A stretch of DNA of 62,226 nt, counting the filler, from Hausera hauseri (taxonomy: Eukaryota): NCBI GenBank assembly GCA_046269625.1. It is 10 parts of 10 records of this genome, joined end to end, with 100 filler letters (N's around TTAATTAATTAA, not from the genome) between each part and the next. Parts side by side here need not be neighbours in the genome. Positions count along the whole stretch, not along the records: positions 30,143 to 39,188 come from JBJURY010478798.1; 9 more parts are not named here. One strand, given 5' to 3'. Each line of letters begins with the position of its first letter. The first letter of the stretch is position 1. The notes under the pieces were generated by a model that was not told the DNA's origin, did no database searches, and worked only from the letters and a program-made list of their open reading frames with translations. The position numbers and the translations under genes were made by a program. Below, piece by piece: positions 5,641-48,950 of this stretch.

Positions 5641-5699
5641 CGACACCTCTACAACCGAAATTTCGACATAGACCTGTGGACTCGAGCTGGAATTCCATC

Positions 5700-14687: not shown

Positions 14688-14998
14688 TAATACCACGCGT
14701 AACTGTTGCAGACAAGTATGAATGAATTCCGGTAGAAACTGACATTGTCGATGAATGGGTATTAGAAGATTACGTACATCGGGTAAGTGATCCACTTGTT
14801 GAAGGAGTATTCTATTTACTGGTAGTCCAAATTGTGAAGACAAACGGACATTTGTAACATTGAAATAGTTAAAGAACAGTAACACCAATTGCTTTTTAGC
14901 CTGTAGACTGACATTTGTTGAATTGCAATTTGCAGTGAGATTACACGTTGTGTTCAATGTCAAAAGGCTCTGTTGAATTGCACTAAATGAAACACACC
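14688..14998 (-). repeat. Inverted copy of 16259-16568
   Basis: Both copies translate to nearly the same peptide (..LLFF.YF.VTNVRL.S.FGLPVNRI.LQQ.DHLPDVRN.LIPIHRQ.QFLPEFIHTCLQQLRVVL); this copy is cut by the contig end. Confidence 0.9.
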
Positions 14999-15361
14999 GA
15001 TCAGGATCTTCTACGTCTGATGGAACGGCGAAGCGTAATCTTTCATTTTCCACAATTGATATATTTCTTAATAGAAACCGTCGTATTTCCGGCATTCGAT
15101 ACGCATAGAACAATCAAAATCATTTCTTGATTCAAATGTTCTTTCTCGATAATACTCTCCGATGATTTGTCACCATTTTCCAGATTCTGAATGAAATTCA
15201 ATGACATCTGGTGTGACGAATTACGAAGATTACATTTCCAAAGTATGAATCTACACTTATCCGTTTGTCGACCAATTCGATCGAGATTTGTCAAGAGAGA
15301 CAGTTGTTTCGTATTGAAATTATCCACGAGTGAATTGAGCTAGGCAACGAGAATTTCATGT

Positions 15362-15868
15362 TTACAGACACTCGTGTTTTCGTGAATTGATCACACGACA
15401 TTTTGATGAGCAGTAGACAAATGAGCAATCCTCACAATGATAGTTATCAATCGGAATGATGGGATTTAATATGTTAGGACAACGAATGTTACAGCATTTT
15501 CTTTTTGTCTGATCAACTGATCTCAAATGATGACGATATCGTGCATAGTCATTCATTCGCTTAGACATCGATACCAGAAAATCATTGGCCAATTTCTTTA
15601 ATAAATCTTTGTTATTATCGCCAGTTATTGATGGTATATTTTGCTTAACAACATTCAATGTTTCTCTGGTTTTTGATGTCATTATTTGACTGAGTTTCGT
15701 TTTGTGATGATAATATCGTTTACTCGGTAAATCAAATTGATTTCGGGCAGCTTTTGGCGGATTGGATTTTTTGATGTTGACATAGTCAGTAAACGACAAC
15801 GATTCTGACACCAATGTAGTTTCAATAGAAAAATATCCACAAGTAATAGTAGAAGCTCTGACAAACAA
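15362..15868 (-). CDS. Hypothetical ORF with C-terminal MYND/HIT-like zinc finger
   Basis: CCNIRC...CEDCSFVYCSSKC.....KHEC pattern; start codon uncertain (non-ATG in the track). Confidence 0.4.
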   Translation of the reverse strand: MFVRASTITCGYFSIETTLVSESLSFTDYVNIKKSNPPKAARNQFDLPSKRYYHHKTKLSQIMTSKTRETLNVVKQNIPSITGDNNKDLLKKLANDFLVSMSKRMNDYARYRHHLRSVDQTKRKCCNIRCPNILNPIIPIDNYHCEDCSFVYCSSKCRVINSRKHECL

Positions 15869-16367
15869 AAGTTTATATTTAAAATTTAAAAAACAATATC
15901 TGCAATCAATCTATTACTCAATACTTGTCCTTATCCTAACAACCATAATATTTTTAACATATAATTCAATCATTGAGGAAAATAAAAAACAACGTATCTT
16001 TGTTTTGACAGAGAGATGTATTTTAAAATATCGTTAGATAGATATTTCCTGACATTACAGTAAAGTTCGTATAGGACGTTCCAAGACGACGAAATAAAAC
16101 ACCAAAACACATTGATTCTTCGGCGAAATAAACAAAAACAAAACAAGTGGTATTAACAAAATTGTATTTTGAGTTAAATCAACGACCAAAATAAAAAATG
16201 AAATAAAACGAAATCGCGATTACATTGTACACAACATTACCCCCTCCCCCCGTGGCGAGGTGTGTTCCGTTTAGTGCAATTCAACAGAGCATTTTGACAT
16301 GAACACAACGTGTAATCTCACTGCAAATTGCAATTCAACAAATGTCAGTCTACATGCTAAAAAATGA

Positions 16368-17123
16368 TTGTTGTTACTGTTTTTTGACTATTTCGATGTT
16401 ACAAATGTCCGTTTGTTTTCCCGATTTGGACTACCAGTAAATAGAATACACCTTCAACAATTGGATCATTTACCCGATGTACGTAATATTCTAATACCCA
16501 TTCATCGACAACGTCAGTTTCTACCGGAATTCATTCATACTTGTCTGCAACAATTACGCGTGGTATTAGACAATAATTGGCGAGAAGCTGTGTCTGTACT
16601 GGAGCTATCATATCATTTTCGCTCGAGCCAGATGGCTGATACATGGAAACAGGCGTTGGCTGCTGTCAAACAAACTACCAAAACAATACTTGCACCGGAA
16701 AGTCACAATCGAGTACTGTGGTTGACATACACCGAATTATTGTTGCAACTTACAGATCCGCCGCCATTTACACAGTCCAATAAGGCTGTAGATTGGTTGT
16801 TTCAAGAGGCTTCAAAGGTTCTTGCAAGATTATTTCAGCAAATTGACAGTGATGACTTGTCATTAGAACAAATTCTGCGAATTTTAAATCATTCTATCTG
16901 TCTAAAAATCAAACAGAATCCCACCAATGGCTCACAATCCATACTTGAAGATATTTTAAAGAAAGTGTTGGCCGCAAACGTTCAATGTAAAAAATTTGCA
17001 TTGCCTATACCGAGAATTAATTCGGTCACAATGGGGGGCCACAAAGATAATACGTATTCCTTTTTATCAAATTTCATCGATCAAACCTCGTCTTCGTCCA
17101 ACAAAAATTTATATCCACGGTGA
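16368..17123 (+). CDS. Hypothetical helical protein fragment
   Basis: 251 stop-free codons; the 5' part is duplicated in inverted orientation at 14688-14998; family not recognised. Confidence 0.35.
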   Translation: MLLLFFDYFDVTNVRLFSRFGLPVNRIHLQQLDHLPDVRNILIPIHRQRQFLPEFIHTCLQQLRVVLDNNWREAVSVLELSYHFRSSQMADTWKQALAAVKQTTKTILAPESHNRVLWLTYTELLLQLTDPPPFTQSNKAVDWLFQEASKVLARLFQQIDSDDLSLEQILRILNHSICLKIKQNPTNGSQSILEDILKKVLAANVQCKKFALPIPRINSVTMGGHKDNTYSFLSNFIDQTSSSSNKNLYPR

Positions 17124-17169
17124 AGACATAGTTACCAGTACAGGTTGGAATACAAGTAATACATTTAGA

Positions 17170-17410
17170 AGGAACCGTGTTTTTAGTTTTTGGCGTGTCA
17201 CACCAAGTCTAAGTTTTGAAAGTTTGGTTAAGCGTAATATCCGAAGTATAATCCTCACCAACGGTACTCTTTATCCTATTGACAATTTAAAATTAGATAT
17301 GAAAATAAAATTCTACATAGAATTACGTAACAACCAGGTGATTAATAAAGATCAGCTACTTGTAACTATTAGCGGAAAAGCGCCCGATGGAGAATATCTG
17401 AATAGTAAAA
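17170..17410 (+). pseudogene. RTEL1: RTEL1/FANCJ (XPD-family) helicase fragment
   Basis: VFSFWRVTPSLSFESLVKRNIRSIILTNGTLYP...IELRNNQVINKDQLLVTISGKAPDGEYLNS aligns by eye with RTEL1 LSYWCFSPG..M.ELV..GVRS.ILTSGTL.P...LENPHII...Q..V.V...GPDG..L.S (motif III region); only a fragment. Confidence 0.7.
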
Positions 17411-17438
17411 CGACTGGAAATGACTTTGGAATTAAAAG

Positions 17439-20018
17439 ATGACTCTGGTAGGAAAGTTGTTTACATTACCGAACCTTGTTTTATGCAGAAGGTTTATACA
17501 AAATGTGACTTACATGTCTATTTATTGCAATGGAACGCCTCCGACTTATAGTGAAAGACAGTCGTTCGAAAACACCAGCGACACTACCGATCGAATCAAC
17601 GTTTTAGAGTCGGCGTCTCTACTCGGTACACTTCACATTCGAAAGAATCGATCAGATTCGGCCACTGAAATATTCCAAAAGTTACAACTCGAATTCGGAC
17701 AGATGACCCGTAAGATGACGCGGTTGACCTGTAAAGACATCGATCTGCAGTCTCCACAATACAACATGATACCACCGATCATGGAGAAACCTGTACACGA
17801 TAAGGTGAGATTCACCATTATACAATGTTCGGTCGGCGAATATTTTTTATACATTTTTATTCACAATATTTCTTACCCACTTTTCCCCTACTTCTTTGTC
17901 AATTATACAGTTGACACAACATCGCCTACCCATGGTTTTGTAAGTAGGGAAATATCTGAATCTTGTTTACATAGTTGCAACAGTAGTTTTCGACTTGCTG
18001 TATATTCGTATAAGCGTTTAGCCCATACCATTCGTTGTAAGATATCCAACTACGTGTTCACGATCCTTAGATCATTTTTTAAAACCATATTCCGATCTCT
18101 AAGATTCGTCGAAAAGAAACCGATTAATGATTACAGTACACATTTTACATTGTGCCTATTGCTTGTCATTTGTCAAAATCAAGGTGTCAGTGAAACGCTA
18201 CTTCCGCTATGTGGGTTCACATCCAAATCTCAATCTACCGTTGGTAATTATCGAATGCTGACGGAACAGATTATAAACGTATTTAACTATTCCGTAAAAG
18301 TTAGAAATTTTATTGTAAGAAAAGGTCACATCAAAATTATATTTAATTATAATCCGTCGAATAGTACGCAATTTAGTGGCGTATTCAGTTTTTCTTTACG
18401 AGATTTTGTGAGTGATTTGATACACATTACATCGTTGGGAAATTCGGATTATTCAAAGAGATGGTATTCATCATTTTATATTGATCCATGTTGGCAGTAT
18501 TACCTTTTCTTTTTACGTATGATTCAGTTCGTTTTTCGTCGTCTCGAGTATTTGACCTACAACTTTTATCTAGTGAAGGCATCCTTGCGTGACGCATATT
18601 GCTATTATTCTGACAGGACTCCTGTAACCTTTGGAATTCTAAATAATTTCAGCCAAACATTTCTTTTTAATCCTCAGATGATAAATTTCATCTATTCTAT
18701 TCAGCCGTTGTTGCATTTTACCCTTTGTTCACGACATAGTTTTTCGAGGTACCGTGCACTCACAAGAATTTGTGAACTTGATGATGGCCACATAGAAATT
18801 AATGAAGTGGTTTATTCATCTCATACTCCTGAGGTGCAAACAAACCATGGCATGACAAACCAATCAACCTTCTGTTCTACATCAATGAGTCCCACGCCAT
18901 GGTGTGTTTCGTCACCACACCAACCACTTGAGTTTACATCGACTATTACTTTTTTATTCTTTCTAAAGAATCACCATTTACTAACACACAGAATGACAAA
19001 TTCGATAGATGCATCCTATCTACACAACTATGTACCATACATCGCCAACATCTCTGATTTTTATCTTACGTACAATAATCTACCAATAACTAACTCCAAC
19101 CTCCGTAACCTTTCTATACATTCAATCCATTGCATCATCATTCACATACACATTCGCATACGTGGTGGAATGGAACATTCACTTACAATTAACACCACTG
19201 ACCTAAATACCCTCAAAACATCACATTTTGCGTTCAACCAAAAACCATCAATCGTTACCACGCCATCTGTCAGTAGTTATGCTTCTTCAACCTCGCCAGT
19301 CAAACACACTTCTCAATGCACGGAGTATTTTATTGCCCACGAACAGTCCAACAAAACGTGGCTTAGCTTCCACAAACTTTGGCTGCAATCTAACAACATC
19401 ACTGATCCGCTAACTAAAGCCCATAACCTGCTTTGTCTTTTGCCAACAACTGTTCAAACGGCCATTCATGATTTGCTAGATATCTTCCAGAAAACTGATC
19501 CATACACGCATCTTTACAACGCCATTTTAAAGCTTACTGAACCATCTATGAACTCAATAATTCATCGTTTCTTCAACAACAATGTTATGGGGACGCAAAA
19601 ACCATCAGGTTTCCTCAGAACGTCACTCACACAACTTCAAACACTTGGCGTGATTAAACAACACAACGCTGATCTTTTGCGACGCTACTTCATGAACGCA
19701 TTGCCCATCCAAATTAGGGCCTTACTTACTCTCGTCGAAGAATCGACAACACTTGATAAATTGGCCGAACTGACGGACAAATCATACGAGGTTTTGAACG
19801 TACACACTCAACCAGTTATTTCTGCAGCAGTTATTACCAACAACGTTATACTCAAACAGCAGCTAAACCAATTACGCGCCGAAAATGCGGCACTCCAACA
19901 CACCATCAACACTATCAGTGATAAATTGAATGACCTTTTTTTACATCGTCACCTACGAGGTCATTCGTATGCTACTACCATAACAAATTTAATAACAACG
20001 CAAATAAATGTTGCTTAG
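17439..20018 (+). CDS. gag: 859-aa ORF: long unknown N-terminal region fused to Gypsy Gag
   Basis: The C-terminal part (SNKTWLSFHKLWLQSN...MNSIIHRFF...LLRRYFMNALPIQIR) is homologous to the gag of contig 1; Cys-His knuckles follow in a shifted frame at ~19965-20120. Confidence 0.7.
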   Translation: MTLVGKLFTLPNLVLCRRFIQNVTYMSIYCNGTPPTYSERQSFENTSDTTDRINVLESASLLGTLHIRKNRSDSATEIFQKLQLEFGQMTRKMTRLTCKDIDLQSPQYNMIPPIMEKPVHDKVRFTIIQCSVGEYFLYIFIHNISYPLFPYFFVNYTVDTTSPTHGFVSREISESCLHSCNSSFRLAVYSYKRLAHTIRCKISNYVFTILRSFFKTIFRSLRFVEKKPINDYSTHFTLCLLLVICQNQGVSETLLPLCGFTSKSQSTVGNYRMLTEQIINVFNYSVKVRNFIVRKGHIKIIFNYNPSNSTQFSGVFSFSLRDFVSDLIHITSLGNSDYSKRWYSSFYIDPCWQYYLFFLRMIQFVFRRLEYLTYNFYLVKASLRDAYCYYSDRTPVTFGILNNFSQTFLFNPQMINFIYSIQPLLHFTLCSRHSFSRYRALTRICELDDGHIEINEVVYSSHTPEVQTNHGMTNQSTFCSTSMSPTPWCVSSPHQPLEFTSTITFLFFLKNHHLLTHRMTNSIDASYLHNYVPYIANISDFYLTYNNLPITNSNLRNLSIHSIHCIIIHIHIRIRGGMEHSLTINTTDLNTLKTSHFAFNQKPSIVTTPSVSSYASSTSPVKHTSQCTEYFIAHEQSNKTWLSFHKLWLQSNNITDPLTKAHNLLCLLPTTVQTAIHDLLDIFQKTDPYTHLYNAILKLTEPSMNSIIHRFFNNNVMGTQKPSGFLRTSLTQLQTLGVIKQHNADLLRRYFMNALPIQIRALLTLVEESTTLDKLAELTDKSYEVLNVHTQPVISAAVITNNVILKQQLNQLRAENAALQHTINTISDKLNDLFLHRHLRGHSYATTITNLITTQINVA

Positions 20019-21059
20019 GTTGTAAATATTATTCGCCAAATCTACATTCGAGTAATATAATTTGCATCTATCATGCAAAATTCGGATCTAATGCTCGGAG
20101 TTGTATTTCTGGCTGTACCGACAAAACTAACAAAAACTATTCCATCGATAGACGTCCCAACATCTCTAATAGTAANNNNNNNNNNNNNNNNNNNNNNNNN
20201 NNNNNNNNNNNNNNNNNNNTTAATTAATTAANNNNNNNNNNNNNNNNNNNNNNNNNNNNNNNNNNNNNNNNNNNNACTCAACTGTTATGTTTAAAGGATC
20301 TAAATAGCTTATGCCTCGCGACCATAAACTCTCTTATTCTTTGACTTTAGGATGTGATTCGATCGCTAGAATGCACACTAGCGATGGTTCCGCTTACTTA
20401 TTTGATTTTAGACAACCTTCCTCATGGGACGGTATACCGAAACGGGACTCTTTTTATCTGTAATTAGCTTGTTTATTATGATTTATAATGTATTTTTATC
20501 GACCTGTTTACTTAGACACGCAATTATCAATAAGTACTGAAGACAAGAAAATGTTTAATAGGTATTGAAATAACTAAACAACCAAAGTATAAACGACCAT
20601 TAAGTAATACAAGTATAATTGGAAAAATACAATTATCAATCAATATTATCAATCAGAAGTATCGTAATAACGGAAAGAAAAACAAGTTACAAAAATTTGT
20701 GCGTTTGTTATACGAATTTAATTGGGTTGTATAATGGTTCATTGGCTATCATTTTTCAAATAAAAACCGCATTAACATACAATTACAAGAAATGAAGGAG
20801 ATTATATCGTCTAATCGAATAAATCATATCAGATTAAATTCATTGTCGTGTTCAGAATAAAATTACATCAGTATTTGAATTACAATTGTTAATTTACTTC
20901 TGTGTCAATTTGCATCAGAATCAAGTCACATTGGTATTTGAGCTAATTTACATTTGCAATTGCATTTGCATTTACATTTGTGTCGACACCTCCCATCTCA
21001 GATGAAGCCGTCCTCGGCTGACTTATGTCCTCCCAGCATAGCATCGTGGTATTGGATCA

Positions 21060-29129: not shown

Positions 29130-29278
29130 GAGCCAGGAAGTAATGAGGACATTAAGCAGTTTGTCCAAGAAAGATTTGGCGTTCAGTTTGACCTTTTCAG
29201 CAAGATTGAGGTGAATGGCAAAAATGCTGACCCTTTGTTCAAGTTTCTCAAGAAGGAGCAGAAAGGGACCCTTGGCGA
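29130..29278 (+). CDS. GPX4: Phospholipid-hydroperoxide glutathione peroxidase (GPX4-like) internal exon
   Basis: TTTCCAG|GAG CCA GGA...EPGSNEDIKQFVQERFGVQFDLFSKIEVNGKNADPLFKFLKKEQKGTLG(D)...GA|GTGAGT; splice positions match those recalled for animal GPX4. Confidence 0.9.
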
Positions 29279-30142
29279 GTGAGTAGTCATTATAAGTTGG
29301 CACTAAAACTTGAAATGCCTCACACTAAGTAAAATCCCATAATGCCAGAAGTATAAAAGGCCTAAAGTGCAGTGCAATAATGACTATATCATTTTGTTCT
29401 TTACTGTATCATTGGTCTTTTTCATATATGGCAAGCCCTGACAGAGAGGCTTCAGGTTTGGATTCCTGAAAACCCTGGCACAAGTGATGAGTGATCAAAA
29501 TAAATAAATATGTTAAGGTATATATTTAAAGCATGCCAAACAAGTCCTAAGGACGAATTAAAGAGGGGAAAGAAATCCCCAGTAAATCTTATTTTCCCCG
29601 CGTGTTACAGGCACGGCCACTTAATTTTATCGGTAACCGAGTTCGAATCTTCAAGTGCCTGTTACTTAGCTCTGTTCGAAAGCTACCGACTGGTATATTA
29701 ACCCTAAGAGCCTGTAGCTACTTACCCAGGCGGCTATGGTCTTATAACCAACAATTAACAATGAGTGGCAGATGAAATTCGACACCGACCGAAAAGGGTT
29801 AATGAAATTGCCCGTTTGGCTACCCACTTATGATAAGTTGGCCAAACTTGAGTAGTCGGTTAACTGTGTAAGACAAATTAGCTTCTTCCGTATTTGGTAA
29901 TACCGCCGATCTCGAGTCGTTTCAACTTTGCGATCATATTTGGTATTAATCATGGTTCAGTTTCATACATTTTGAGAAATGTTAATGATTAATTCAGTTA
30001 ATGTAAGCGTAACACAGACAGTTTGCGTTATGTTAAAATATANNNNNNNNNNNNNNNNNNNNNNNNNNNNNNNNNNNNNNNNNNNNTTAATTAATTAANN
30101 NNNNNNNNNNNNNNNNNNNNNNNNNNNNNNNNNNNNNNNNNN

Positions 30143-30342
30143 ATACACAGTGTCCATCACAGTCTATAATCAGTGAAGCACTTGTAATGAACGAAATATA
30201 CACTTGAATTAAGAAAACAATCACTGTTCAATACTGTCGCACATAACATATAGTGGAATGAACAAAATACACAGTGTCCATCACAGTCTATAATCAGTGA
30301 AGCACTTGTAATGAACGAAATATACACTTGAATTAAGAAAAC
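30143..30342. repeat. 124-bp tandem repeat (about 1.6 copies visible, cut by contig end)
   Basis: ATACACAGTGTCCATCACAGTCTATAATCAGTGAAGCAC...AAGAAAACA starts at 30143 and again at 30267. Confidence 0.9.
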
Positions 30343-30356
30343 AGTCCAATACAGTG

Positions 30357-30869
30357 TCAATTCCGTAACCATGTTTCAAAATCTTTGGTATTGGAAATGT
30401 TTGAGTCTTGTGTGTCGTCCCCGTCCTGTGTGTACTCTACGTCCAGAAACGGGGACATACACATACACCGATCACACATACACAGTTCACTATAATCGCA
30501 TCTTGTGGACATCTGGACAGACTCGGACGATGGGCTCCTGTTTGCTGACTGCATCTGCTCTCGTCCGGGGAATATCGGGGACTGTTGTCCGGGAAATATC
30601 GGGGACTGTCGTCTGGGGACCATCGGGGACAAATACAATGGGCTCATACATCGATCACAAATACACAGTTCACTATTGTCACACCGTCTGGACATCGGGA
30701 CAGTCTCGGACACTGGGCTGCTGTACCTGGGTGGTGACTGCGGTGTCTGGTGTCTCCGGATCGTCGGGGACATCGGAACAGTCTTGGACTCTGGGCTGCT
30801 GTCCCTGTGTGTTGACTGCGATGTATGGTGTCTCCGGATCATCGGGGACATCGGGATAGTCTCGGACAC
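30357..30869 (-). CDS. Ser/Pro/Arg-rich ORF with two C-x5-C-x-C-x2-C motifs; probable 3' part of the frame overprinted on rep
   Basis: SP(T/M)IRRH and QSPIFPG repeats; RCDNSELCICDRCM and RCDYSELCMCDRCM 183 nt apart, in frame. Confidence 0.5.
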   Translation of the reverse strand: MSETIPMSPMIRRHHTSQSTHRDSSPESKTVPMSPTIRRHQTPQSPPRYSSPVSETVPMSRRCDNSELCICDRCMSPLYLSPMVPRRQSPIFPGQQSPIFPGREQMQSANRSPSSESVQMSTRCDYSELCMCDRCMCMSPFLDVEYTQDGDDTQDSNISNTKDFETWLRN

Positions 30870-31020
30870 TGGGCTCCTGTCGCGTTGTCTGGTGTCTCCG
30901 GATCGTTGGGCTCCTGTCTCTGGGTGTTGACTGTCTCCGGATCGCCGGGGACATCGGGACAGTCTTGGACACTGGGCTGCTGTCCCTGGGTCACGTTGTC
31001 TGGTGTCTCCGGATCGTCGG
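30690..31020. repeat. GC-rich 72-78 bp tandem repeat at the 3' end of rep
   Basis: GGACATCGG.A.AGTCT.GGAC.CTGGGCT starts at 30690, 30768, 30846 and 30949. Confidence 0.9.
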
Positions 31021-32008
31021 AGATGACGATGGGCTCAACTGGGCTGTCTGGCTCGGCTTTGATGCAGTCATCTGCGGTGAGCTGTGTGATGTTCCAGCGG
31101 TCCAGTGAGAGCATCCTGATGTCTGGAGCAAAATTGCTGAAGCAGACAACGTGGGGAGGCGAGTAAATGGCTGAGACGGGCTGGTACTTGCTTGAGAAAA
31201 TACAGCCGTTTTTAATACACTCGATTGCCTCGTAGTTGATTTCTTGCTCTTGGGCTCTGGAGAAGTCAAAAACGACGATGCGCTGTCCTCGATAGAGGTA
31301 CTTGATGTCGGCAGATTTACCGTTTTCAAGCCTGAGCGCTCTTTTTTTGGATACCAGGTACTTTGCAAGGAATGTTTTGCCGGTGTTGCCCTGAGAGTCC
31401 CAGATCCAGTAGACTGTGCGATCATCTGGGGGGATTTCAAGGAGGATGAGTGTTCGTTTCTGCCACACTTTCCACTGGACATCATCGAAACCTTCAGCGA
31501 TATCACCAGCGTGCCTACTGATGCTAGACTCGAGTGCAATGCGCTCGAGAGCAGAATGATAGGTGAGGTATGTACCTCCAAGTGCTTGATCTGCCAGGAT
31601 GCTGGAACTGGGTACGCCACTGGCACGTCGACATACAATTGTAGTTCCTGTTGTAGAGACTGAAGGTTTCCCTCCACTCTCATTACATTCATTAACAATT
31701 TGTCCATGCACAAATGGTGCTGGGTCCTGCTTGCAGCAATACTCATAGTTTTGTTGATCAGTTCCCTTTGCGATTTCAACATGACTTCGCACTCCCGTGA
31801 TTTTTTTAACAGCACTGAAGTAAATCTGCCTTGTGGCATGGAGATAGCCCTGAAGGTGAGGCGTATTATTTGCACCAATCTCTCTTGCAATAACTGCAAA
31901 TAAGAAACTAACTTGTGATACACTTCGCTTGATGTGTTGATATTCTTCTTCAGTATAGTTGTTTAAAGTAAAACACCAACGTCTGGCTCGTCCTGAAGAT
32001 GTCGCCAT
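30839..32008 (-). CDS. rep: CRESS-DNA virus-type replication initiator protein (HUH endonuclease + SF3 helicase)
   Basis: RCR motif I CFTLNN, II PHLQG, III YCCK; Walker A GNTGKT; Walker B IVVFD; motif C VVCFSN; LSLDRW; ATG at 32008; acidic repeat-derived tail. Confidence 0.97.
   Translation of the reverse strand: MATSSGRARRWCFTLNNYTEEEYQHIKRSVSQVSFLFAVIAREIGANNTPHLQGYLHATRQIYFSAVKKITGVRSHVEIAKGTDQQNYEYCCKQDPAPFVHGQIVNECNESGGKPSVSTTGTTIVCRRASGVPSSSILADQALGGTYLTYHSALERIALESSISRHAGDIAEGFDDVQWKVWQKRTLILLEIPPDDRTVYWIWDSQGNTGKTFLAKYLVSKKRALRLENGKSADIKYLYRGQRIVVFDFSRAQEQEINYEAIECIKNGCIFSSKYQPVSAIYSPPHVVCFSNFAPDIRMLSLDRWNITQLTADDCIKAEPDSPVEPIVISDDPETPDNVTQGQQPSVQDCPDVPGDPETVNTQRQEPNDPETPDNATGAQCPRLSRCPR
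30991..31923 (-). CDS. Candidate overprinted ORF within rep (alternate frame), Ser/Thr-rich
   Basis: 310 stop-free codons in a frame overlapping rep, ending SPTIRRHQTT*; the same frame resumes after a single TGA. Confidence 0.4.
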   Translation of the reverse strand: MYHKLVSYLQLLQERLVQIIRLTFRAISMPQGRFTSVLLKKSRECEVMLKSQRELINKTMSIAASRTQHHLCMDKLLMNVMRVEGNLQSLQQELQLYVDVPVAYPVPASWQIKHLEVHTSPIILLSSALHSSLASVGTLVISLKVSMMSSGKCGRNEHSSSLKSPQMIAQSTGSGTLRATPAKHSLQSTWYPKKERSGLKTVNLPTSSTSIEDSASSFLTSPEPKSKKSTTRQSSVLKTAVFSQASTSPSQPFTRLPTLSASAILLQTSGCSHWTAGTSHSSPQMTASKPSQTAQLSPSSSPTIRRHQTT

Positions 32009-32046
32009 TAGTGACACACAGTTAATGAGAGTGATTTCCCGCGACC

Positions 32047-32148
32047 AGATCGGTTAGATCGGTTATAACCAGACTGATTGCTAGGCAACTAGATTGGTTA
32101 GAACGGCACGCGGTCTAGTATTACCCGCGTGCTGATCTGTTGATCTGT
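32047..32148. repeat. Iteron-like repeats flanking the origin
   Basis: AGATCGGTT x2 (32047-32064), AGATTGGTT (32091-32099), AGAACGG (32100-32106); inverted core TGATCTGT x2 (32133-32148). Confidence 0.65.
32104..32134 (+). promoter_or_regulatory. Rolling-circle origin stem-loop with nonanucleotide TAGTATTAC
   Basis: GCACGCGG (32106-32113) pairs perfectly with CCGCGTGC (32125-32132) around the loop TCTAGTATTAC; nonamer at 32116-32124; about 100 bp upstream of the rep ATG, on the strand opposite to rep. Confidence 0.95.
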
Positions 32149-32187
32149 AGATATCAGGGGCCTTTTTAGAGAAGAAGGGAAGGTCTC

Positions 32188-32278
32188 GGGTTAGGGTCGT
32201 GGGTGAGGGTTCTATCTAACCCCAACCCTAATCCAAACCCTGAGTAAACCCATGGGCTATCCAGGGTCCTAACCCTAA
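32188..32278. repeat. Head-to-head degenerate telomere-like (TTAGGG/CCCTAA) repeats; G-quadruplex motif
   Basis: GGGTTAGGGTCGTGGGTGAGGG, then TAACCCCAACCCTAATCCAAACCC...CCTAACCCTAA. Confidence 0.75.
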
Positions 32279-32284
32279 GTTCGC

Positions 32285-34515
32285 CGCTGCACCAATTGCC
32301 GAGCCCGAAGCATCCGTATAAAGTATTAATTCCTTGTCCATTTCAGGGTAAGCTAACAATGGTACAGTTGTAAGATTCTCTTTCAGGTATTCAAATGCTC
32401 TTTGACAATTTTCGTCCCATTTGAATCTCGCATATTTTCTCGTAAGAGCGATGATTGGTTCCGCAATCTTTGAAAAGTTTGGAATAAATCTCCAATAGTA
32501 TCCGCAGGTCCCAATAAATCCTCTCACTATTCTCACTGTCTTTGGTGCTGGCATCTGTCTAATAACCTTAATTTTTTGTCTTCCTCCGGTTTGATGCCAC
32601 TCTTGTTTATCACAAAACATAGATACTTTTTCTCTGTTTTGAGGAACTCATATTTGCTGAGCTTCAGCTTTACTGTGTGCTGTCTCAATCTGTCAAACAC
32701 TAACAGGTCTCAGATGATCTTCGATTGACCTGCTGTATGAATCAGAATGTCATCAATATAGGCTGTAGAAAATTTCTGCATGCCTTCTAATACAATGTCC
32801 ATTAGACTCATGTATGTTGCCGGTGATCCTTTCAGTCCGAATGGTATGACATTCCACGCGAAACTTCCGACATGTGTGCAAAATGCGATTTTATTCTTTG
32901 CACCTTCTGAATTTGGTATACACCAAAATCCACTTCTGGCATCCAGTGTTGTAAAATAATCTGACTAGTTCAAGGTGCCAAGGACATCATCTATGTAAAT
33001 CATAGGATGCGCCAGATTCCGAGTTATCGTATTGAGCGATCTGTAGTCTACACAAAAACGATGTGATCCGTCTTTCTTTGATACGATCACTATCGGGAAT
33101 GACCACTCTGATCTTGTCCTTTCAATAATTCCTGCTTGCAACATGTCTTCGATAGCCTTTTCTACTATCTCTCTGTTCTTTAATGGAGTACGGTATGGCT
33201 TTAAGCTTATGGGTGGATGATCCCCTGTATTAATCTCCATTGTTACTGTTTGCGTTCTGCCTAACTCCATGTCATTAATTGCAAATACATCTGCATGCTT
33301 CTTCACAAAGTTCTCTAACAGCTGTTTGTGTCCCCCTTCTGTTTTCAACTGCTTCATTAACTCCTGTACTCTATCTTGTTTATGTGATCCTACTTCGTTG
33401 GTCTCCATCTTTTCTAGCATCTACCCTTTCTCTGATTCCTATTATATGTTCTTCTCCTTGGTTGTTCTCTCTTCATTTGTTGTTCTATCCTGTTGTTGTT
33501 CCTTGGTTGGGAGTGTTCAAACCATCTTCTGTTTGAATTGTTCTTGTTTTGCTTCCTGTCTCCATTCCATTTTCTTCTTTGATTTCTCTCATTTTGTTTC
33601 TTCACTTCATTAATCATTCTATTATCTCCCATATTCCTTTGTTCGTAGTCACTATCCTGATAGTTCCGAGGTGTGTATCTTCCTTTTGGTTCTCCCTGTT
33701 TTCTGTTACCTTGTTCTCTTTCACCCCTCATCTCCTTTATGTCTTCCTGTTCGATTACCTTTGGTTCCACTGCTCTGCCTATTACACATCCTCGCTTCAG
33801 AGTTATAATCTTGTTGGTGCCGTTTGTAATCATCACTGGCACATCAAATCCCTTTCCTATAGTTGCTATTCCTTCTGTTACAATTAGTCCTGGTTCATCA
33901 ATGATGTCTCCTTTATCTGTCTCTGTTGTTGCTATTATTTGTCCCTTCTCAAAGTAGTGTGTTTTCTTCAGTCTCCCCACTATCAAATTCACTGTATTGG
34001 GCTTCAATGTTGCGCTGTGTCTCACTCTAAGCTATGTGTATGTCATCCTGTAGTTCAACGTATTCATCTCCTATTCTCAGTTTCTGCAAGTCAAAGCATA
34101 TTCTAACTCCATTTTTTCTAAGAAAGTCTCTGCCTAAAATCATGCTCCGATTCATGTCCCTCACAACATAAAATGGATGTACTACCTCTACTCTACCTAA
34201 TTTGAACCTCAGGTTGACTGACCCTATTACCTTCAGTGATTCTCCTGAAACTGACTGTAAATTTGCCTTCCTGTCAAATAGCCTGTCTCTGTTTTTCAAG
34301 GATCTGTAAACTGATTCTTTTAGCAAGCTCACTTCCGCACCTGTATCAACTAAACATCTTAAACGTCTTTGATTAACATTTACAATACAAGAGTTTGGGT
34401 CTTCTGCTAAATTAACACTAAATCTCTGAGTTTTGTCTATTCTTCTTTGTTGGGTTCTAAATTCCCAAGGCCCACTACAGTTCGAACCCTTTACTGTGCG
34501 GGGTTGTCGTTTCCC
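32285..34515 (-). mobile_element. pol: Ty3/Gypsy pol (PR-RT-start of RNase H), truncated at the Rep element
   Basis: CLVDTGAEVS protease; SEWSFPIVIVSKKDGSHRFCVDYRSLN; LDARSGFW; YIDDIL; GFIGTCGYY; LYTDASGSAIGA, after which homology stops. Confidence 0.95.
34452..34515 (-). promoter_or_regulatory. -1 frameshift slippery site plus H-type pseudoknot
   Basis: G GGA AAC (34515-34509), spacer, stem 1 CCCGCACAGT/ACTGTAGTGGG, stem 2 GGGTTC/GAACCC; the -1 frame is open into the protease. Confidence 0.75.
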
Positions 34516-35904: not shown

Positions 35905-38671
35905 TGTTTGTTATGTCGACGTGCTATCAATCTAGCACTGTCGTTCAAACATAGGTGACTCACTCCTCTCGGTGCCTAAGAGGAACACAATTTAGTAATT
36001 AACGGAAATACTCGGGATCCTTAATAATGGAGTTGAGTATCTTCCGGAGTATCCGTCTATCAGTTACTTCAAAGGTTCAACAGAAATCCACTCGGATTAT
36101 TCCTATGAGTAGTCTCTGGGAATCCTCTCAACAGTTGACATCTTGAAAATTTGCTGTCTCTGCTAACCATGAGCCAGGGATACACTCTGCTTCACTACCA
36201 TACACTAAAAATATCCTCTATCAATAACTAAGTTAACTCCTTTAAGAAATTGTACAAATAAAAGCTTATAATTTTATTTTAAATTAAATTTCATGCCAAG
36301 AATGTTGTTATAGATAAATAAAATTAAAAGATAATGATAATATTCTTTTTGTGTACGATGACACAATCCATCATGCACTAACAATATGCTAATTAATTAT
36401 GATCAGAGTCTAGAACGAATTTCTTAATTCCTTTATTCTTAAATATCAACTAAATTAGCTACTGTCTGTTCTGTCTTGAAATTAGTCACTGGTGGTTATC
36501 TATGTTCAATTGAAAATTACACGTTATCTGGTCGTGATCTAAAATTGTGCGTGGGTATACCCCGGTTTTAGGCACAGAAATTGTAAACCCAGGAATGGTC
36601 ACCTTCTGTGACGCTAGTCCCTTGTCACTAGAATCTTCCATGAAATATTGTGTCTTTAGTTGTTGGTTAAATTGTCTATTTTTACTGGTAATAGTCTCTT
36701 TTCAAATGACATGGACTTGGTTCTCGAAATGACAAAGAGAAGGCTATTACGGGTTGGAGTAGAACGATAGTTGTTGTGCTGTCACGAGAACTATCTGAAT
36801 AAAATTGTCACGATTTCCTTATTAAAATGCCTGTCTCTGTGGATAAGTTGTTGAATCAAATATGGGTAATATCTTGTCTATAGCTTTATGACGAGTCTAA
36901 TGTTCGCATTCGCTTTAGACTGAAAACTTCTGAGTTGAAAAACTGTCTATTTCTGCTGCTACAGTGGGTTAATAGTGCTGACACGGTTTTTGGAAAACCA
37001 ACCACTAAAATTGTATAAAAGTCTCTCGTAAGTAAATTCAGGCACTCTGGATGTAAGGCTCTGTCACACTTATTCAACTAAGGTCTCTTGTAGGTTTTGT
37101 TTGTTCAGTTCAATATAACTGAACAGGCTACTAAGTAAATTGTTATGAAAATGATAATGTTCTCAGCGCTACAAATATTATTAACTGTTGGCTCTCTTCA
37201 CAATAGTCTATGTTGAAAACTTTCTTACAAGTCAATGGTATGAATTCAGGTACGGTATGTTTTTGTTACTTTTCTATTTGAACTTCAATCTACACACTGC
37301 ACTCTAAAATCAGTCGGACTCTTCGTGTTGTCTCACTATTCGGCTATAAAATCCTTCTGGTTAGTTACTACTATTGACTTTATGTGCTCTCAATAATTAA
37401 TGACTGCCAGTAAAGCCTTCTGTTACGATGAACAACTGGTAATGTGACTGACTACTGGTAAAGTGTTAGTTCCTATCACCACAATCACTCTGTTATTGTT
37501 AGTTATTAAATGTTAGTGTCACTATTTGAACTCTCTGACTCCGCACAACTTGATTAAACTATCTGTCTATTCGTCCACAAGTTAAATTCATTACCTCAGT
37601 ACAATTCTGTTACTATGAGTATTTTGGTAAGATGATTGACTACTGGCAATAATGTTAATTACTTTCACAACAACTCATTCTGATGATTGTTCTAAAATGT
37701 TAGTGGCACTTATTATAGCTTTCTGATTCCACGCAAACTTCGATTTGTCTGTCTACTTGTCTATTGTTCTTTCATGTGTGTCAATGTTACAGCAAAATAT
37801 TATTCTACGTACAGGTCAGTCTTGGTCTGTTGAAGATCTTGAGATTGGTTGCGCCTTGAAAATTTTCTCAACACTAACCTAATATACCACTGACGAAAAA
37901 TTGGAAATTTTTGTCTATTAGCTGAGACTGGATCCTACGTGCTTCATGTCTGCCTTCCTGGTTCTTTAGGTACCAACTACACACTATAAATCTCTCTCTA
38001 TGAATCCAGACTTCTGTCCGGCCACTATTCTCTATACTATGTCTAACGATGTTTCCACTACGAGAGATCTGCACAAACTGACTGAATTTCCAGTGCGGAC
38101 TATATATTTAAAGCTCTGTTTTTCCAGACTTTTCCATGCTGATCTATTTTCCAGCTCACGTCACGTGACCGTCTGGAAAGTTCTGAAATTTCCACCTTCT
38201 CCGTTAATTAAGTCAACATTCTCCTTGATTCCGCTTGTATTGTCTGAGTTTATCCTGTTTGTTTACCTAGTGTCTGGTATTCAGTTTAATCATCACCTCC
38301 TTGATGTCCGCACGGACAATGTCATGCCATCTCATTGTTTTGTTTAGTTAATTAACGTGTTTTGTCTCCTGCCGCGACCTTGTGTCTGGCCATATTTGGA
38401 TAACTCCGCGTCAAAATGTAGGGTTTGTTATTTCAACTCCTGTCACTGTATCTAGGTGATTGACAACTTTACATTCCTTAAATTTTGGTTGCCGTTAGTT
38501 TTCTGTGTTCAACTATGTTAAATTTATATGGCTGTTTTCCTATATATATCTATTCTTCCTGTGTTTTATTTTCATTCTATCTTCTGACTTTAGTTTTGAG
38601 TTTTTACTTAAATTATTAAAGCTATTTTTTTCCCATTGATTTTATTGATTTTCCTGGCCGATACTGTCACA
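35905..38671 (-). repeat. Candidate long (~2.7 kb) 5' LTR of the Gypsy element
   Basis: Non-coding stretch between the PBS and a TGTGACAG start at 38671; contains a diverged ~190-bp internal duplication (~37446 and ~37634); no second LTR available to confirm. Confidence 0.35.
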
Positions 38672-40947: not shown

Positions 40948-43900
40948 ATGACAACAAGTGTCCCAAAAGCAAATCAGATATGCGGTTCCTATGCTTATTG
41001 CACATCCAAAGCACATAATCCGCAACAGTGTCATGAAACGATGCAGCGGTATTATGGACACAAATCCAAAAGTATCCAATATTATATATGTGCGGGATGC
41101 GAGACAGTATGCAATGCAGGTTACATACAGTTCTATTATGATCACAAACATCATTTGAGTCACTTCGTATCAAAATCAAAGAAGGCCATCTATAATGAGC
41201 AACATAATATTGATGCATCTGCTTCGCAGTATTCTGCCTCGCATTATGCTGCTGGATCTGGTGCAGCAGCTGCGAAGCATATTAGAGAATCGAAACGCAC
41301 AGCCGTCTCAAGCGCAGCAGCATCAGGCGCAGCCACATTATGCACGGCCACATCAGACGCACCGGCTCCATCAAAAAGCCAAAGACAGCGGCCAGTTGAT
41401 GCTGCAGCATTAAAGAGAAAATGGCGCAGATATGTTATTGAGGCAACTGGTCAAACAATTCTCCGAGAGTTCCTCTTATACATAAAGGGCGAGACAGAGG
41501 GGATTCTTCAAGACAACATGACTGAGATCAAAGCCCTTAATGTGGATATGAAACTGGAGGCCACATACATCAATGTTGATGGCGAAGAATCCAATAGGGC
41601 CTTCAAGGCCTAAAATAGACCCGTATTGGAAAACACCAATATAGCAGAATGGATGCAAGAGGCTCACGAGAAGCTGATGTGTGAAGCCGGGAGAGCCAGG
41701 ATAAGAAGAGCGGATGGACTCTGGCAACCATTAAAAGATTGATTGTGTATATTCACAAGTACTTTCACATGCGGGGCAGTTCATATATTCAGCTCCCTTA
41801 TTGGATCGCTAATAAAAAGCATGCGTCTATGTCCATAATAATGACAACATGTGTTTCATGTATGCCACTTTATCAAACTCGTAACGGATCAAAATCATGC
41901 TTCATCAGTTTGGCTATATAAGGCTGTGCAGCACAACTATGATTTCCAATGTATCAAGTTCCGTCCATCCATAGATGAAGTTAAAAAATTTGGAAAAGTC
42001 AACAACGTGTCCATCAATATCTTGTGATTGGACGAGGATGATAAATTCTATCCCCTGCAGATATACCATGCTGAATTGGAAGATCATAGGCATCTGCTCC
42101 TACTAGACGATGGAGAAAAGAAACATTATGTTTGGATAAAAGTCTTTGAGCGGCTAGTCCCATTTTAGCGGCTATGTGGCTGTATTGAAGCTGAAAGAGC
42201 GCATGATGTACCTCAACAACAATTATTGTATTGGGCCAAATTTTCCCAAAGAGGACTGTATTGAATTCAAGGAGTTCGAGAAGAAGCTCAAGGTCCCAAT
42301 AGTTATTTGTTGCGACTTTTAAGCTATTCTCAGGCCAGTTCACAGCTGCACTCCCAGTCCTCAACATAGCAGCACAACGGCATACTACTATCATGAGCTC
42401 TCATCATATTGCACGTATGCTAAATGACTGGACAGTGAACCGTATCTATTCAGGGGTCCAGGCGCAGCAGCTCATTTCATGAAACGACTTGAAGATATGG
42501 CTCATAGGATTGGAGATATGCTGCAACAGTATAAGGATACAATGAGCATGTCGAAGCAGCAAGAAGAACGGCGCAAGGCAACAGCATGTTACTTGTGCTC
42601 CAGATCATTCAGTAAGGATAATTGTAAAGTAAGGGATCATTGCCATTTGCAAGCAAATATCGGGGCGCGGCATGCAACAACTGCAATCTACGCTACAAAA
42701 CATGTACATGTGCCTATAGTGTTCCATAATCTCAGTGGCTATGATTCCCATTTCAGTGTTCGGGAACTGGGAGGCATTGAAGGAAAATTTGATGTGATTC
42801 CTAATAGTGAGAAAAAATACATCACATTTACCAAGCATGTTAGGAAAATCATGTTTCGCTTCATAGACAGCTTCCGTTTCATATTGTCTTCACTTGACAG
42901 TTTAGTGAAGAACCTCCCTGCAGAAGAACTCAAGGAGATGAAGCAGTTTATTCCCACTACATTTGGCCTCGTCAAGAGGAAAGGCGTGTTTCCCTATGAC
43001 TATATAACATCATGAGAAACACTGGATGAGACCTCATTGCCAGCCAAGAAGGACTTTTATAATATCCTCTCTGATTGCGATATCAGTGACATGGACTACC
43101 AGCATGCTCAGAACGTCTGGCATGCATTCCAATGCCGAACATTAGGAGAATACAGCGACATATACCTCAAGACGGACGTGCTGCATCTGACGGATGTCTT
43201 TGAGAGTTTCAGGAATGTTACGATAAAGAGCCATGCATTGGATCCGGCTCGTTTCTTGGCTCCAGGGATGAGCTGGGCAGCAATGCTAAAATATACATGT
43301 GTCTGTATGCAGATCATAAAGGATTACGACATGATACTCATGATTGAGATAGGCATTAGAGGTGGAATATGCCAGACCATTCACCGCCATAGCGAGGCCA
43401 ACAACAAGTATATGGCCCAGTATGATCCATCCAAGGAATCGTCATATATGTCATACCTAGATGCCAAAAACTTGTATGGATGGGCAATGAGCGCCCCATT
43501 ACCATATGATAACTTCAAGTGGGTGAAACATCCTGAAAACATCCCTATACTAGACCTGGATCCCATTGGAGATACGGGATACATACTGGAGGTAGATATG
43601 GAATATCCGGCTTCTATCCAAGCAAGGCATCAACAGCTGCCTTTCCTCCATGAGAGCAAGCCTCCGCCCCATGGAAAGCATAGAAAGCTGCTCTGCCATC
43701 TGGATAGTAGGGAGAGGTATGTAGTCTACTACATAAATCTCCAGCAGACGGTCAGGAATGGACTCCGCATTACTAAGATCCATCGGGCCCTGCAGTTCAG
43801 CCAGTCCCACTGGCTGCAGCCGTACATAGATCTTAATACGAAGCTGCGGACCAATGACAAGGACGACTTTGAGAAGGACCAGTTCAAGCTGTACAACAGT

Positions 43901-44646
43901 AGCGTTTTTGGTAAGACCATGGAGAATATCAGCAACAGGATCAACATCGAACTGGTCTCTGAGTGGAAGCGGGCAAAGAAGTTCATTGCCAAGCCTAACT
44001 TCCACAGCAGCACCATATATGCTGAGAACTTAGTCAGCATCCATATGCTGAAAACATCCTTGCAATTCAACAATTCCATATATATTGGTATGGCAATACT
44101 GGACCTGTCAAAGACCTTGATGTACAAATTCCACTATGACATCATGGTCCCCAAGTTCGAGTCCATGCAGTTGATGTATATGGATACTGATAGTTCCATC
44201 TATCAGATTCATACAGATGATATTTATAAGGACTTTGCTAAGTTGGCAAAGCATATTGATACCTCAGATTATCCGAAGGATCATCCCAACTATTCAATTA
44301 CCAACAAAAAGGTCCTTGGGAAATTCAAAGACGAGGTGAATGGGGCAATCATCTCGAGATTTGTAGATCTTAAATCCAAAATGTATGTCATTGATATGTG
44401 GCCAAGTAAAGAAGCGGGCTAAAGGGGTTCAAGGGGCGACCTTAGCCAATAAGATCACTTTCGAGGATTATGTTAGAGTTCTGCATGAGCAGACTCATCA
44501 TATCAGAGATTCGAAGGATCCAGTCTAGGGCTCATAACATTGAGACAGTAACATTACAGAAGAACAGCCTAGATTGGATGGATGACAAGAGACAGATCCC
44601 GGATGATGAAATCCATACACTACCTCACGGACATGTGGCATTGTAA
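40948..44646 (+). pseudogene. polB: Protein-primed family B DNA polymerase of Polinton/Maverick/adintovirus type, frameshifted
   Basis: N-terminal zinc-finger-like motifs; endonuclease-VII-like CYLC..KVRDHCHL; exonuclease FHNLSGYDSHF, FIDSFRF, RKGVFPYDY, YLKTDV; polymerase YLDAKNLYGWAM, KLYNSSVFGK, YMDTDS; terminal DDKR..TLPHGH*; AATAAA downstream. Confidence 0.92.
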
Positions 44647-47589: not shown

Positions 47590-48950
47590 GACGTTATGTG
47601 ATGATGATGTATGCAGACGACCTCGTCACATGGTGTAAAGAAGAATATGCAACAACTACCACCAAGAGACCCCAGAACGCAGCAGATGCCTTGACCTCAT
47701 GGACAGAGAAATGGTGCGTCAGTATCAACACAGACAAGCCATCAACGATATTATTCACACTTTCACCTAAACAGAAAGCAGCAGCCATCAGCGTAGATGG
47801 AACAACCTTAATAGAGGGCAGCCAGCCAACTTACCTAGGAGTCATATTCGACACCAGCCTTACCTGGAAGCACCATTTTAGCAGAGAAGAAACAAAGGCA
47901 AGAAGGAAGCTACCCATCATGAGGAAATTGAGTGGCACTACATGGGGATCAAATGATAGAATCCTGAAGAATATGTATCAGCAGGGTATTCGACTCACTT
48001 GGAATATGGTTCAGCAGAATGATGCGCAGCACTAAATACAACATTATACAGTTTGGAGCAAACTAAGCATTCTGAATCGTCATAGGTGCAATGAAATCCA
48101 CACCTACAACACAAATGGAAGAAACAACTGGTATAATACCATTAAAGGAACGAAGAGGTATAATGGTAATGGTACAAGGAGAAAAAGACAAGAGCATGAT
48201 GAACCATCCAATGAAACACAGTAAGGCGACTAAAGAGAAACAGCTTTGTACACCAACCCAAGAACCTTCAGAAACAAATACCCGACCGACCGGATATAAC
48301 TATTCCCATAACACACGTTCCACAACATACACCATGGATGGAAGAAACCTTTACAAAAATAGATATAAGAACAGAAGTACCAGGTGTATACAGCCGTGAC
48401 CATGAAAATCAATCAGAAAGGAAAACAGCAAGACTAAGCCGCCTGGATGACGTATACCCTCGAGAACAATGGATTCGCATCTATACAGATGTATCAGCGC
48501 AAAACGCTGTAAAGAATGGAGGGGCTGGTATCGAATATCCTGATAAAACCAGCAATACTGTCAGTATTCCTGCAGGAAAACACAGTAATAACTACAATTC
48601 CGTAGTCAGAGCAATTATTGTGGCAGCGGAGGAGCTCTCAAAATCTAAGTTTCGCACACACCCTGTAGTATTCCTCACAGATGCAAAATCGGTCTCAGTA
48701 GCCATTGAGAGCAGAAAACTGATAGAGCTGAAAGATACTCTGGCCAAAATTAGCAGTCATCAACGAGTACAATGGATCCCATACCACTGTGGAAATTGAG
48801 GAAATGAGAAAGCTGATACTCTGCCTAAAGGCGGTACTGTAATGAAACAACCAAACATCCCAATAACGTATGACCACAAGAAGAGTATGATAAAGATACA
48901 CAAGAAATCACCTTCAGTGTTACCAGATGCCTATCATATGTTTAGCCTTA
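47590..48950 (+). mobile_element. I-group LINE remnant (RT C-terminal half + RNase H)
   Basis: YADDLVTW, TYLGVIFD..LTWK.H, LSGTTWG, IYTDVSA..AVKNGGAG, VFLTDAKS, QWIPYHCG..GNEKAD. Confidence 0.9.

Follow-up and report, generated by a model that had tools for sequence, protein, structure and literature searches.

Endogenous CRESS virus elements of invertebrates, as described in the available text of Liu et al. 2011 (PMC3198968) and Dennis et al. 2018 (PMC6069186), consist of Rep alone, are in many cases intact, sit next to host DNA or transposons, and are known from both gastropods and bivalves. The latter source, in the part available, lists intact rep-only CRESS sequences in assemblies of Biomphalaria, Conus, Mytilus and Modiolus. 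HUH endonucleases also reside in eukaryotic chromosomes as Replitrons, which use a Y1 HUH transposase without a helicase (Craig 2023, PMC10288648), and as Helitrons, which combine a Y2 Rep with an SF1 helicase.

The locus described here lies in a window of 62,226 nt made of 10 joined segments from unrelated contigs of a fragmented assembly (segments of 4–9 kb), and it occupies the start of a 9-kb, repeat-rich contig. It resembles the endogenous CRESS elements, but its origin hairpin is kept beside rep, a feature unmentioned in the available portions of those two sources, and its lineage and probable pulmonate host are its own. Like Replitrons and Helitrons, it would place an HUH endonuclease in a eukaryotic chromosome, with the Y1/HUQ arrangement of Replitrons (PMC10288648). 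Unlike either, it pairs a circovirus-like nuclease with a viral SF3-type helicase, is present at low depth, and has its nick site in the interior and no visible termini. We favor, with a probability of about 0.7, the reading that this is a fairly young, truncated endogenous CRESS virus fragment in a pulmonate gastropod, joined in by host repair or recombination.

Rep gene, origin and flanking features

The features of the locus are as follows (positions along the window).

30043–30142, no strand: artificial spacer joining contigs (N44, 12 bases, N44), of no biological origin
30143–30346, no strand: a 124-bp unit in two incomplete copies (80 bp, 99% alike), interrupted at the contig end; depth 8 in run X1
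30462–31026, no strand: tandem duplications of the 3′ end of rep and of the adjoining DNA past it, with periods of 24, 78, 103 and 183 bp, 84–88% alike
30839–32008, minus strand: rep ORF, 389 aa, with an HUH (HLQ/Y90) endonuclease (9–95), a helical linker, an SF3 helicase to ~310 and a disordered repeat tail, from ORF, Pfam, motif and structure evidence
31013–31063, minus strand: putative motifs at the start of the Rep tail, which we take to be a psi-K-x-E SUMO-site-like motif (IKAE) and a SIM-like motif (IVISDD)
32009–32180, no strand: viral intergenic region with short, putative iteron-like repeats, read from sequence only
32106–32132, plus strand: predicted rolling-circle origin stem-loop, with a perfect 8-bp stem and an 11-nt loop, on the strand opposite rep
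32181–32286, no strand: telomere-like (GGGTTA/TAACCC) DNA in both orientations, from sequence and depth
32287–35339, minus strand: decayed Ty3/Gypsy gag-pol of a multi-copy family, with CCHC, protease, RT and the first part of RNase H, broken off at the junction (~32286)

The initial annotation described a rep with every HUH and SF3 motif intact, and the protein bears this out. Pfam identifies Viral_Rep (E 1e-17) and RNA_helicase (E 9e-5); the nuclease motifs lie at residues 13–17 (FTLNN), 51–54 (HLQG) and 90–93 (YxxK), and the helicase motifs at 207–212 (Walker A), 245–248 (Walker B), 289–292 (motif C) and 304 (Arg finger). The AlphaFold model has pLDDT mostly above 90 over residues 11–320, and its top structural matches are circovirus Rep nuclease domains. 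HUH motifs I–III fused to an SF3 helicase, together with a nonanucleotide at a stem-loop apex beside rep, mark the locus as derived from Cressdnaviricota. The core looks unworn, deviating at 2 of 64 conserved columns (0–8 in relatives). Past residue ~320 the disordered tail is made of tandem duplications that are 12–16% diverged, and the ORF departs from the frame of the repeat just before its stop codon. This combination of core and tail fits selection on Rep, unless the repeats arrived with the virus.

The perfect stem reported around TAGTATTAC is present, with arms at 32106–32113 and 32125–32132 and the nonamer at 32116–32124. The hairpin has a fold z of −4.85, and only this rep-adjacent site, out of 18 NANTATTAC sites in the window, carries an 8-bp stem. 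The iteron-like repeats hold up as short repeats, comprising a pair at 32041–32062 and 32085–32106 (82% alike) and a 7-mer present twice in 32133–32147, with a putative role in Rep binding. CRESS Reps are established to bind, nick and unwind their origins; in the virus, the Rep found here would have bound the short repeats, nicked TAGTATT^AC with Tyr90 and unwound the DNA with its SF3 domain. The nick site lies ~160 bp inside the Gypsy junction with both stem arms and their flanks present, which is not the anatomy of a Rep-mediated insertion. The visible part holds a single origin, and nicking at this site would lead away from rep, into the repeat and Gypsy; the visible part is therefore no self-releasing unit.

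Rep lies within one contig, flanked by host repeats (~7 kb) in one direction and by the contig end in the other; position 30143 is the contig start after the spacer, not the end of the element. Telomere-like DNA between origin and Gypsy, and a broken Gypsy that stops within RNase H, were both correctly recognized at the outset, and the pol has at least three frame changes and two in-frame stops. The 124-bp tandem array is not established, because only two partial copies are seen, at low depth and cut by the contig end. Rfam gave no match in the rep contig, and no further copy of the element or its end repeat was found elsewhere in the window.

Viral relatives and the search for a capsid

The best Rep matches are small circular viruses (37–43% identity), three of which belong to Anicreviridae (Mulpavirales) by NCBI taxonomy: Kopavirus (Cyanoramphus nest associated circular X DNA virus, 43%), Manawavirus (Dragonfly larvae associated circular virus-10, 39%) and Rakkovirus (37%), over nearly the whole core. 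The family, which is defined on Rep phylogeny, shares the circovirus-like nuclease with a matching helicase type, and the Rep falls among family members and unclassified relatives in our trees. A quick tree of 75 rows places it with Kopavirus in a group of SH-aLRT 90. In a careful tree, which included three named Anicreviridae members and left out outgroup families, it has a long branch (1.44) with no starred sister group, and no starred set contains it. The locus differs from the family in its 9-kb repeat-rich contig, its duplicated tail and the lack of a capsid in the visible part.

Further relatives in viral contigs were found by an alignment scan, a single-protein scan having given none. 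Among them, IMG/VR contig L001 (Rep 40%) has a like layout, with the nonamer opposite rep and a capsid-like ORF from 154 nt past it. That ORF encodes 307 aa and matches a Circo_capsid cluster in the ESM Atlas (0.91), with no partner at E 1e-3, capsids being fast to diverge. The nonamer lies opposite rep in 32 of 76 viral loci. In alphasatellites and nanovirus DNA-R it lies on the rep coding strand, and these are circles, whereas the arrangement here is that of the capsid-bearing L001. What these and other Rep-only circles share with the visible part of our locus is a Rep and a TAGTATTAC hairpin without a capsid (PMC6186406, in its available text).

No capsid was found past the origin or in 30143–30838 (85 capsid-like ORFs, best E 0.062; Pfam; Atlas), a result that, with the contig ending at 30143 and capsids diverging fast, covers only ~700 bp downstream of rep. 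The element can thus be called capsid-less over these stretches; the broader form of that claim in the initial annotation goes further than the contig allows. The duplicated region (30462–31026) showed no capsid similarity. In 17 of the 21 measurable opposite-strand loci the next long ORF begins more than 104 nt past the nonamer, a distance that here falls beyond the start of the high-depth repeat. A missing capsid is the norm for such viral fossils: endogenous sequences number 302 for Rep vs 3 for capsid in the available text of PMC3198968, some of them inside transposons and one in Aplysia.

Relatives of the Rep, broken or intact, also occur outside viral DNA, where their neighbors are a DUF1759 gag (L123), a Mutator transposase (L092) and LINE-like ORFs recognized by eye (L086 and L087).

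Depth, junction and competing readings

Depth was taken as summed contig depth in one public run that contains rep (X1) and may be the assembly's own sample. It is 8–17 across 30143–31954 and 11–14 over rep itself, compared with 4.4–6.4 in the eight listed single contigs and 185–745 over the Gypsy coding bins. Rep thus has a depth that would suit one or two copies, like nuclear DNA and as in an endogenous element, although this is a rough measure from one run and, by the tool's own warning, gives no copy number.

We consider it unlikely that the locus is an assembly artefact or a co-sequenced virus, in which a free or defective circle, or a rep from elsewhere, was joined to Gypsy through the telomere-like repeat. 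The junction lends this reading some weight. The join crosses a ~57-bp piece (~32229–32286) that matches contigs of summed depth ~3000, and no bridging contig is present among those listed in run X1. All six contigs placed at 32253 carry a different letter from the window, other Gypsy copies carry RNase H on past the junction (loose end at 32305 in the X1 contigs), and the assembly is fragmented. However, rep has roughly double the depth of single low-copy contigs, which suits a nuclear locus, and this depth does not change across the rearranged tail; an ordinary read would also be longer than the shared repeat piece. Duplications and a frameshift mark the tail, no capsid is visible where relatives have the capsid 3′ end, and no circle-closing joint occurs among the 15 of 39 joints listed (contigs only, run X1).

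Less probable again is a capsid-less, Rep-driven rolling-circle element, with rep as the autonomous gene and the abundant telomere-hairpin repeat as its non-autonomous family. Such an element would form a third group of eukaryotic HUH transposons, near its viral source. The intact catalytic motifs and origin, and the very abundant repeat adjoining the origin region, are in keeping with it, and the available text of PMC3198968 raises self-propagation of endogenous Reps as a possibility. Six of 76 related viral contigs contain telomere-like clusters (at least 10 motifs; 0.07% in shuffled sequence), so the telomere-like DNA here could be partly viral. An argument that such DNA must be host, drawn from an early census of 0–1 motifs at 21 viral origins, was dropped after this wider test, in which the clusters lay elsewhere in the contigs. 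Two relatives on long contigs (P0019 and P0025) run into PNPN/PNPK-coding (TAACCC-type) repeats, and several long-contig Reps form near-identical groups on different contigs.

Several observations run against mobility: rep is at low depth and the nick is internal, and many dispersed copies with ends at the nick site were not seen in run X1. The bin 31955–32256 averages 280, whereas an abundant family starting from the nick would bring it to ~1320. This value fits a family covering only the last ~27 bases of the bin. It seems that the abundant telomere-like piece stops short of the nick site, although a smaller subfamily may extend further toward it. At its other end the family continues past 32286 into more GGGTTA repeats, so the junction is not the end of that family. 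A 25-base piece of the repeat has no match in the viral contigs. The generic telomere-hairpin pattern has one match there, on a contig named as a giant-virus MAG and without a Rep, and a nonamer with a telomere motif has 15, one of them with a distant Rep (L170). Long-contig Reps are polyphyletic rather than a transposon-like clade, requiring at least four changes on starred branches, with a single origin in 0 of 200 bootstrap trees and one clade rejected by the AU test (p 2.6e-7). A weak search for longer, fused Rep forms found none. Of the two options first proposed for this locus, then, the young endogenised virus is supported and the mobile replicon is not, and present evidence does not reveal a new transposon class. 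A more specific form, equally improbable, is that of a virus-derived, capsid-less gastropod transposon whose nuclease and SF3 Rep seldom mobilises itself but drives short, non-autonomous telomere-hairpin copies, hundreds in number; its terminator would be the visible origin, and its start would lie beyond the contig end.

That the host kept rep, either as an expressed gene or within a small-RNA (piRNA-type) locus among transposon remnants, also has little probability: an unworn core beside decayed Gypsy and diverged tail repeats would suit it, as would the intact, apparently fixed and expressed ant rep in the available text of PMC6069186, but no orthologue was found, the nearest relatives being viruses at ~43%, and the intact origin and viral intergenic DNA fit youth better than long domestication. 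The search of public runs listed X1 as containing the locus and gave no RNA run, an outcome that does not bear on expression.

Probable host and route of entry

Under the endogenous virus reading, the gastropod germ line would have been infected by a CRESS DNA virus, small, ambisense and related to Anicreviridae, whose origin, intergenic region, rep and rearranged 3′ end would have joined a repeat-rich chromosomal site, probably by host repair or recombination and not by Rep strand transfer. The capsid side would have been lost before the capsid start codon, where an abundant telomere-like fragment and a truncated Gypsy now follow. The intact Rep core suggests that the insertion is young.

The host is probably a pulmonate gastropod, judging from one 49-aa GPx exon on a neighboring contig, with 88% identity to Arion and 82% to Bradybaena and Candidula. 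Placement of the element within a GPx intron was rejected, since the exon sits on a different contig. In the literature searched, mostly without subscription papers, we found no report of Anicreviridae elements in gastropods, nor of an animal CRESS-Rep transposon family built in this way. Judging by what they are called, the named Anicreviridae relatives derive from environmental or mixed samples, and the locus, as an endogenous fragment, would offer a clue to their hosts: a germ-line copy in a probable pulmonate gastropod, with further lineages on other long contigs and in an annelid, suggests that these viruses infect lophotrochozoans. The intact origin and intact Rep also provide a matched enzyme–substrate pair for biochemistry.

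Preservation of the replication gene and its origin

The CRESS-type rep and its origin at this locus are real and well preserved. The initial annotation described every HUH and SF3 motif as intact, and the nuclease and SF3 motifs are indeed all present in the encoded protein. Over 64 strongly conserved columns, the window Rep departs from consensus twice (0–8 times in 33 aligned relatives). Its predicted structure is confident across the core and disordered past about residue 330, and the nearest structural matches of this model are circovirus Rep nuclease structures.

32008-30839, minus strand: rep, 389 aa, with Viral_Rep and RNA_helicase Pfam matches
31013-31063, minus strand: ψ-K-x-E motif, then a hydrophobic-acidic SIM-like motif, in the Rep tail

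The tail pair occurs in 5 of the 31 Rep tails examined, the window included (the others being the protein matches P0013, P0017, P0022, and P0023). We take these to be motifs of the SUMO-site and SUMO-interaction types, and, judging from sequence, the pair may be a link between these Reps and the SUMO of the host.

The origin comprises a perfect 8-bp stem and an 11-nt loop holding TAGTATTAC on the plus strand, opposite rep as first described, and it is the only one of 18 nonamer-like sites in the window with such a stem. Short repeats flank it, in keeping with the iteron-like repeats noted earlier. Downstream of the gene are duplicated stretches of the rep 3′ end (periods of 24, 78, 103, and 183 bp; 84–88% identity), followed by a repeat with the 124-bp spacing previously read as a tandem array, although only 80 bp are repeated before the contig end cuts it off. 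Six residues, RADAVS, read from 30541-30565 (minus strand) in these repeats, appear again, in three copies, within the tandem tail of P0019, a Rep on a long contig, either by chance or through a shared DNA motif.

The capsid side and the candidate Gypsy junction

Among the best 120 of 940 matches in the Rep protein search, the closest are 41–43% identical and lie on 2.1–2.4 kb contigs, and three named matches are Anicreviridae; an unindexed search reached the same identity ceiling. The available text of PMC11532311 and PMC12451638 holds nothing descriptive on Anicreviridae beyond reference to the Mulpavirales proposal. In 76 IMG/VR loci, retained as the best among 581 relatives and many only ≈30% identical, the nonamer is on the strand opposite rep in 32, on the same strand in 26, and on none or both in 18. 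The closest of these 76, L001, has a layout like that of the window, and a 307-aa ORF resembling the Circo_capsid cluster begins 154 nt beyond its nonamer. The next long ORF starts more than 104 nt beyond the nonamer in 17 of 21 measurable loci. In the window, a high-depth repeat begins ≈104 nt past the nonamer and Gypsy at 161 nt. The most economical interpretation has the viral DNA truncated ahead of the capsid start. Comparison with 85 capsid-like ORFs revealed nothing resembling a capsid in the window (best E 0.062; as a control, 64 of these ORFs had a partner in another locus), a search of limited sensitivity, with only ≈700 bp visible past rep.

In the Gypsy element (minus strand), gag, protease, RT, and the RNase H model's first 45 positions survive. 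Its reading frame shifts near 34030, 33420, and 32650-32710, and stop codons interrupt it at 32967 and 32712, which bears out its description as a decayed copy ending in RNase H. A diverged duplication of ≈187 bp lies upstream of it (37418-37761).

Depth was taken from the contigs of one public run, possibly the assembly's own sample, that holds 0.80 of the sampled words. It is 8–17 over 30143-31954 (eight single contigs listed at 4.4–6.4), 280 in the bin 31955-32256, and 185–745 in the bins that code for Gypsy; at position 32253, six contigs together reach 2976. The contrast between rep and repeat spans two orders of magnitude in summed depth, which, as the tool itself warns, is no copy number. 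Another very abundant repeat, at depth 6564, occupies the right end of the rep contig (38901-39188).

Five contigs depart from the window at 32286 and carry on as GGGTTA repeat; at 32305, two Gypsy contigs take a different course. The junction therefore interrupts both the telomere-like repeat and Gypsy and has the look of a rearrangement breakpoint rather than an element terminus. Because no bridging contig is among those listed (8 of 1471 pieces) and each of the six contigs at 32253 departs from the window sequence, the rep–Gypsy join is a candidate only. An artefact or a free virus is an unlikely account of the locus. We favor, with a probability of roughly 0.7, a truncated and fairly young endogenous virus, carried by a gastropod and allied to Anicreviridae. 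Of the two options first proposed, this upholds the young endogenised CRESS virus; the capsid-less mobile replicon is disfavored by low rep depth, an internal nick site, and the polyphyly of long-contig Reps.

Transposition or repeated endogenisation

Rolling-circle transposons have ends defined by cut sites. At this locus both arms of the stem survive with their flanks, and the proposed end is ≈160 bp away from the nick site, which is internal. A nick on the plus strand would direct synthesis into the repeat and Gypsy, leaving rep behind, and only a single origin can be seen. As it stands, then, the element does not form a self-contained unit, unless it begins past 30143. Replitrons and Helitrons are defined in PMC10288648.

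Telomere-like DNA is dense at the locus (18 motifs in 120 bp). Clusters of at least 10 motifs also occur in 6 of the 76 viral loci, and 3 of the 76 reach 18, against <0.1% of shuffles, so such DNA is not host-only. GGGTTA clusters far above shuffles are seen in the CRESS contigs L010, L012, L021, L032, L059, L065, L102, and L122; none of the 20 papers listed by a literature search used the term "telomere-like". These viral clusters, and two long-contig Reps ending in PNPN/PNPK-coding repeats, would suit a Rep-driven transposon whose abundant repeat is related to a viral intergenic region. That account is very improbable, however: a family beginning at the nick site would give a bin mean of ≈1320, whereas the mean of 280 is matched if high depth covers just the last ≈27 bases of the bin, and the piece shared with the abundant repeat is absent from viral contigs.

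ENA contigs of 48–508 kb account for nine of the same best 120 matches; another match is on an ENA contig of 10 kb, and one more comes from Lamellibrachia satsuma. Several long-contig Reps are nearly identical to Reps found on further long contigs. We infer from contig size that these are integrated. A careful tree covered 28 Reps from the top matches (the window, 8 long-contig, and 19 short-contig, counting as short P0145, of unknown contig size). On it, the long-contig label requires at least four changes on starred branches, and a single long-contig clade is rejected (p = 2.6e-7). Six JGI loci (L086, L087, L089, L092, L093, and L123; about four distinct, as L086/L087 and L092/L093 overlap) carry related, mostly broken Reps in AT-rich, non-viral DNA, adjoined by Mutator transposase, DUF1759 gag, and LINE-like ORFs. 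This scatter is a pattern of repeated endogenisation. A close group on 99–508 kb ENA contigs (P0011, P0030, P0032, P0039, P0122–P0124, P0128, and P0129), several of them on a 508-kb contig, is very like the L. satsuma protein, which contains two partial Reps in tandem; if an endogenous Rep has amplified locally, this group is a likelier case than the window.

Endogenous CRESS rep elements are already documented, and this locus is probably one more. PMC3198968 counts 302 Rep against 3 capsid endogenous sequences, some within transposons and one in Aplysia, and raises self-propagation as a possibility; PMC6069186 describes all its new endogenous sequences as rep-derived, intact in Biomphalaria, Conus, Mytilus, and Modiolus, with only Modiolus confirmed as flanked; and PMC6186406 and PMC10193959 cover Rep-only molecules and the use of endogenous elements as evidence of host. 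Co-option of the gene is just as improbable as a Rep-driven transposon.

Genomic setting and probable host

Because the window is built of separate segments (ten of 4–9 kb, linked by nine identical spacers of 44 N, 12 bases, and 44 N), 30143, where the locus occupies the left end of segment 30143-39188, is a contig end and not an element end. The neighboring segment carries a host clue.

29130-29276, plus strand: glutathione peroxidase exon (Pfam GSHPx)

Its identity is 88% to Arion vulgaris, 82% to Bradybaena and Candidula, and 78% to Elysia, and this one 49-residue exon points to a probable pulmonate gastropod affinity.

Elsewhere, 42428-44422 (plus strand) holds the beginning of a DNA polymerase B domain of the protein-primed type (Pfam DNA_pol_B_2) and a 468-aa ORF with no Pfam match, possibly a Polinton/Maverick or similar remnant. 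Retroelement pieces with integrase zinc-binding, DUF7041, RNase H, RT, and rve domains lie on separate contigs (4272-4994, 17436-20018, 48215-48799, 51372-51872, and 53013-53795). Segments 1-9189 and 14688-20175 have 631 bp in common at 75%, and 55071-62226 is a 7-kb degenerate GA-rich microsatellite segment with small gaps, whose long ORFs are by-products.
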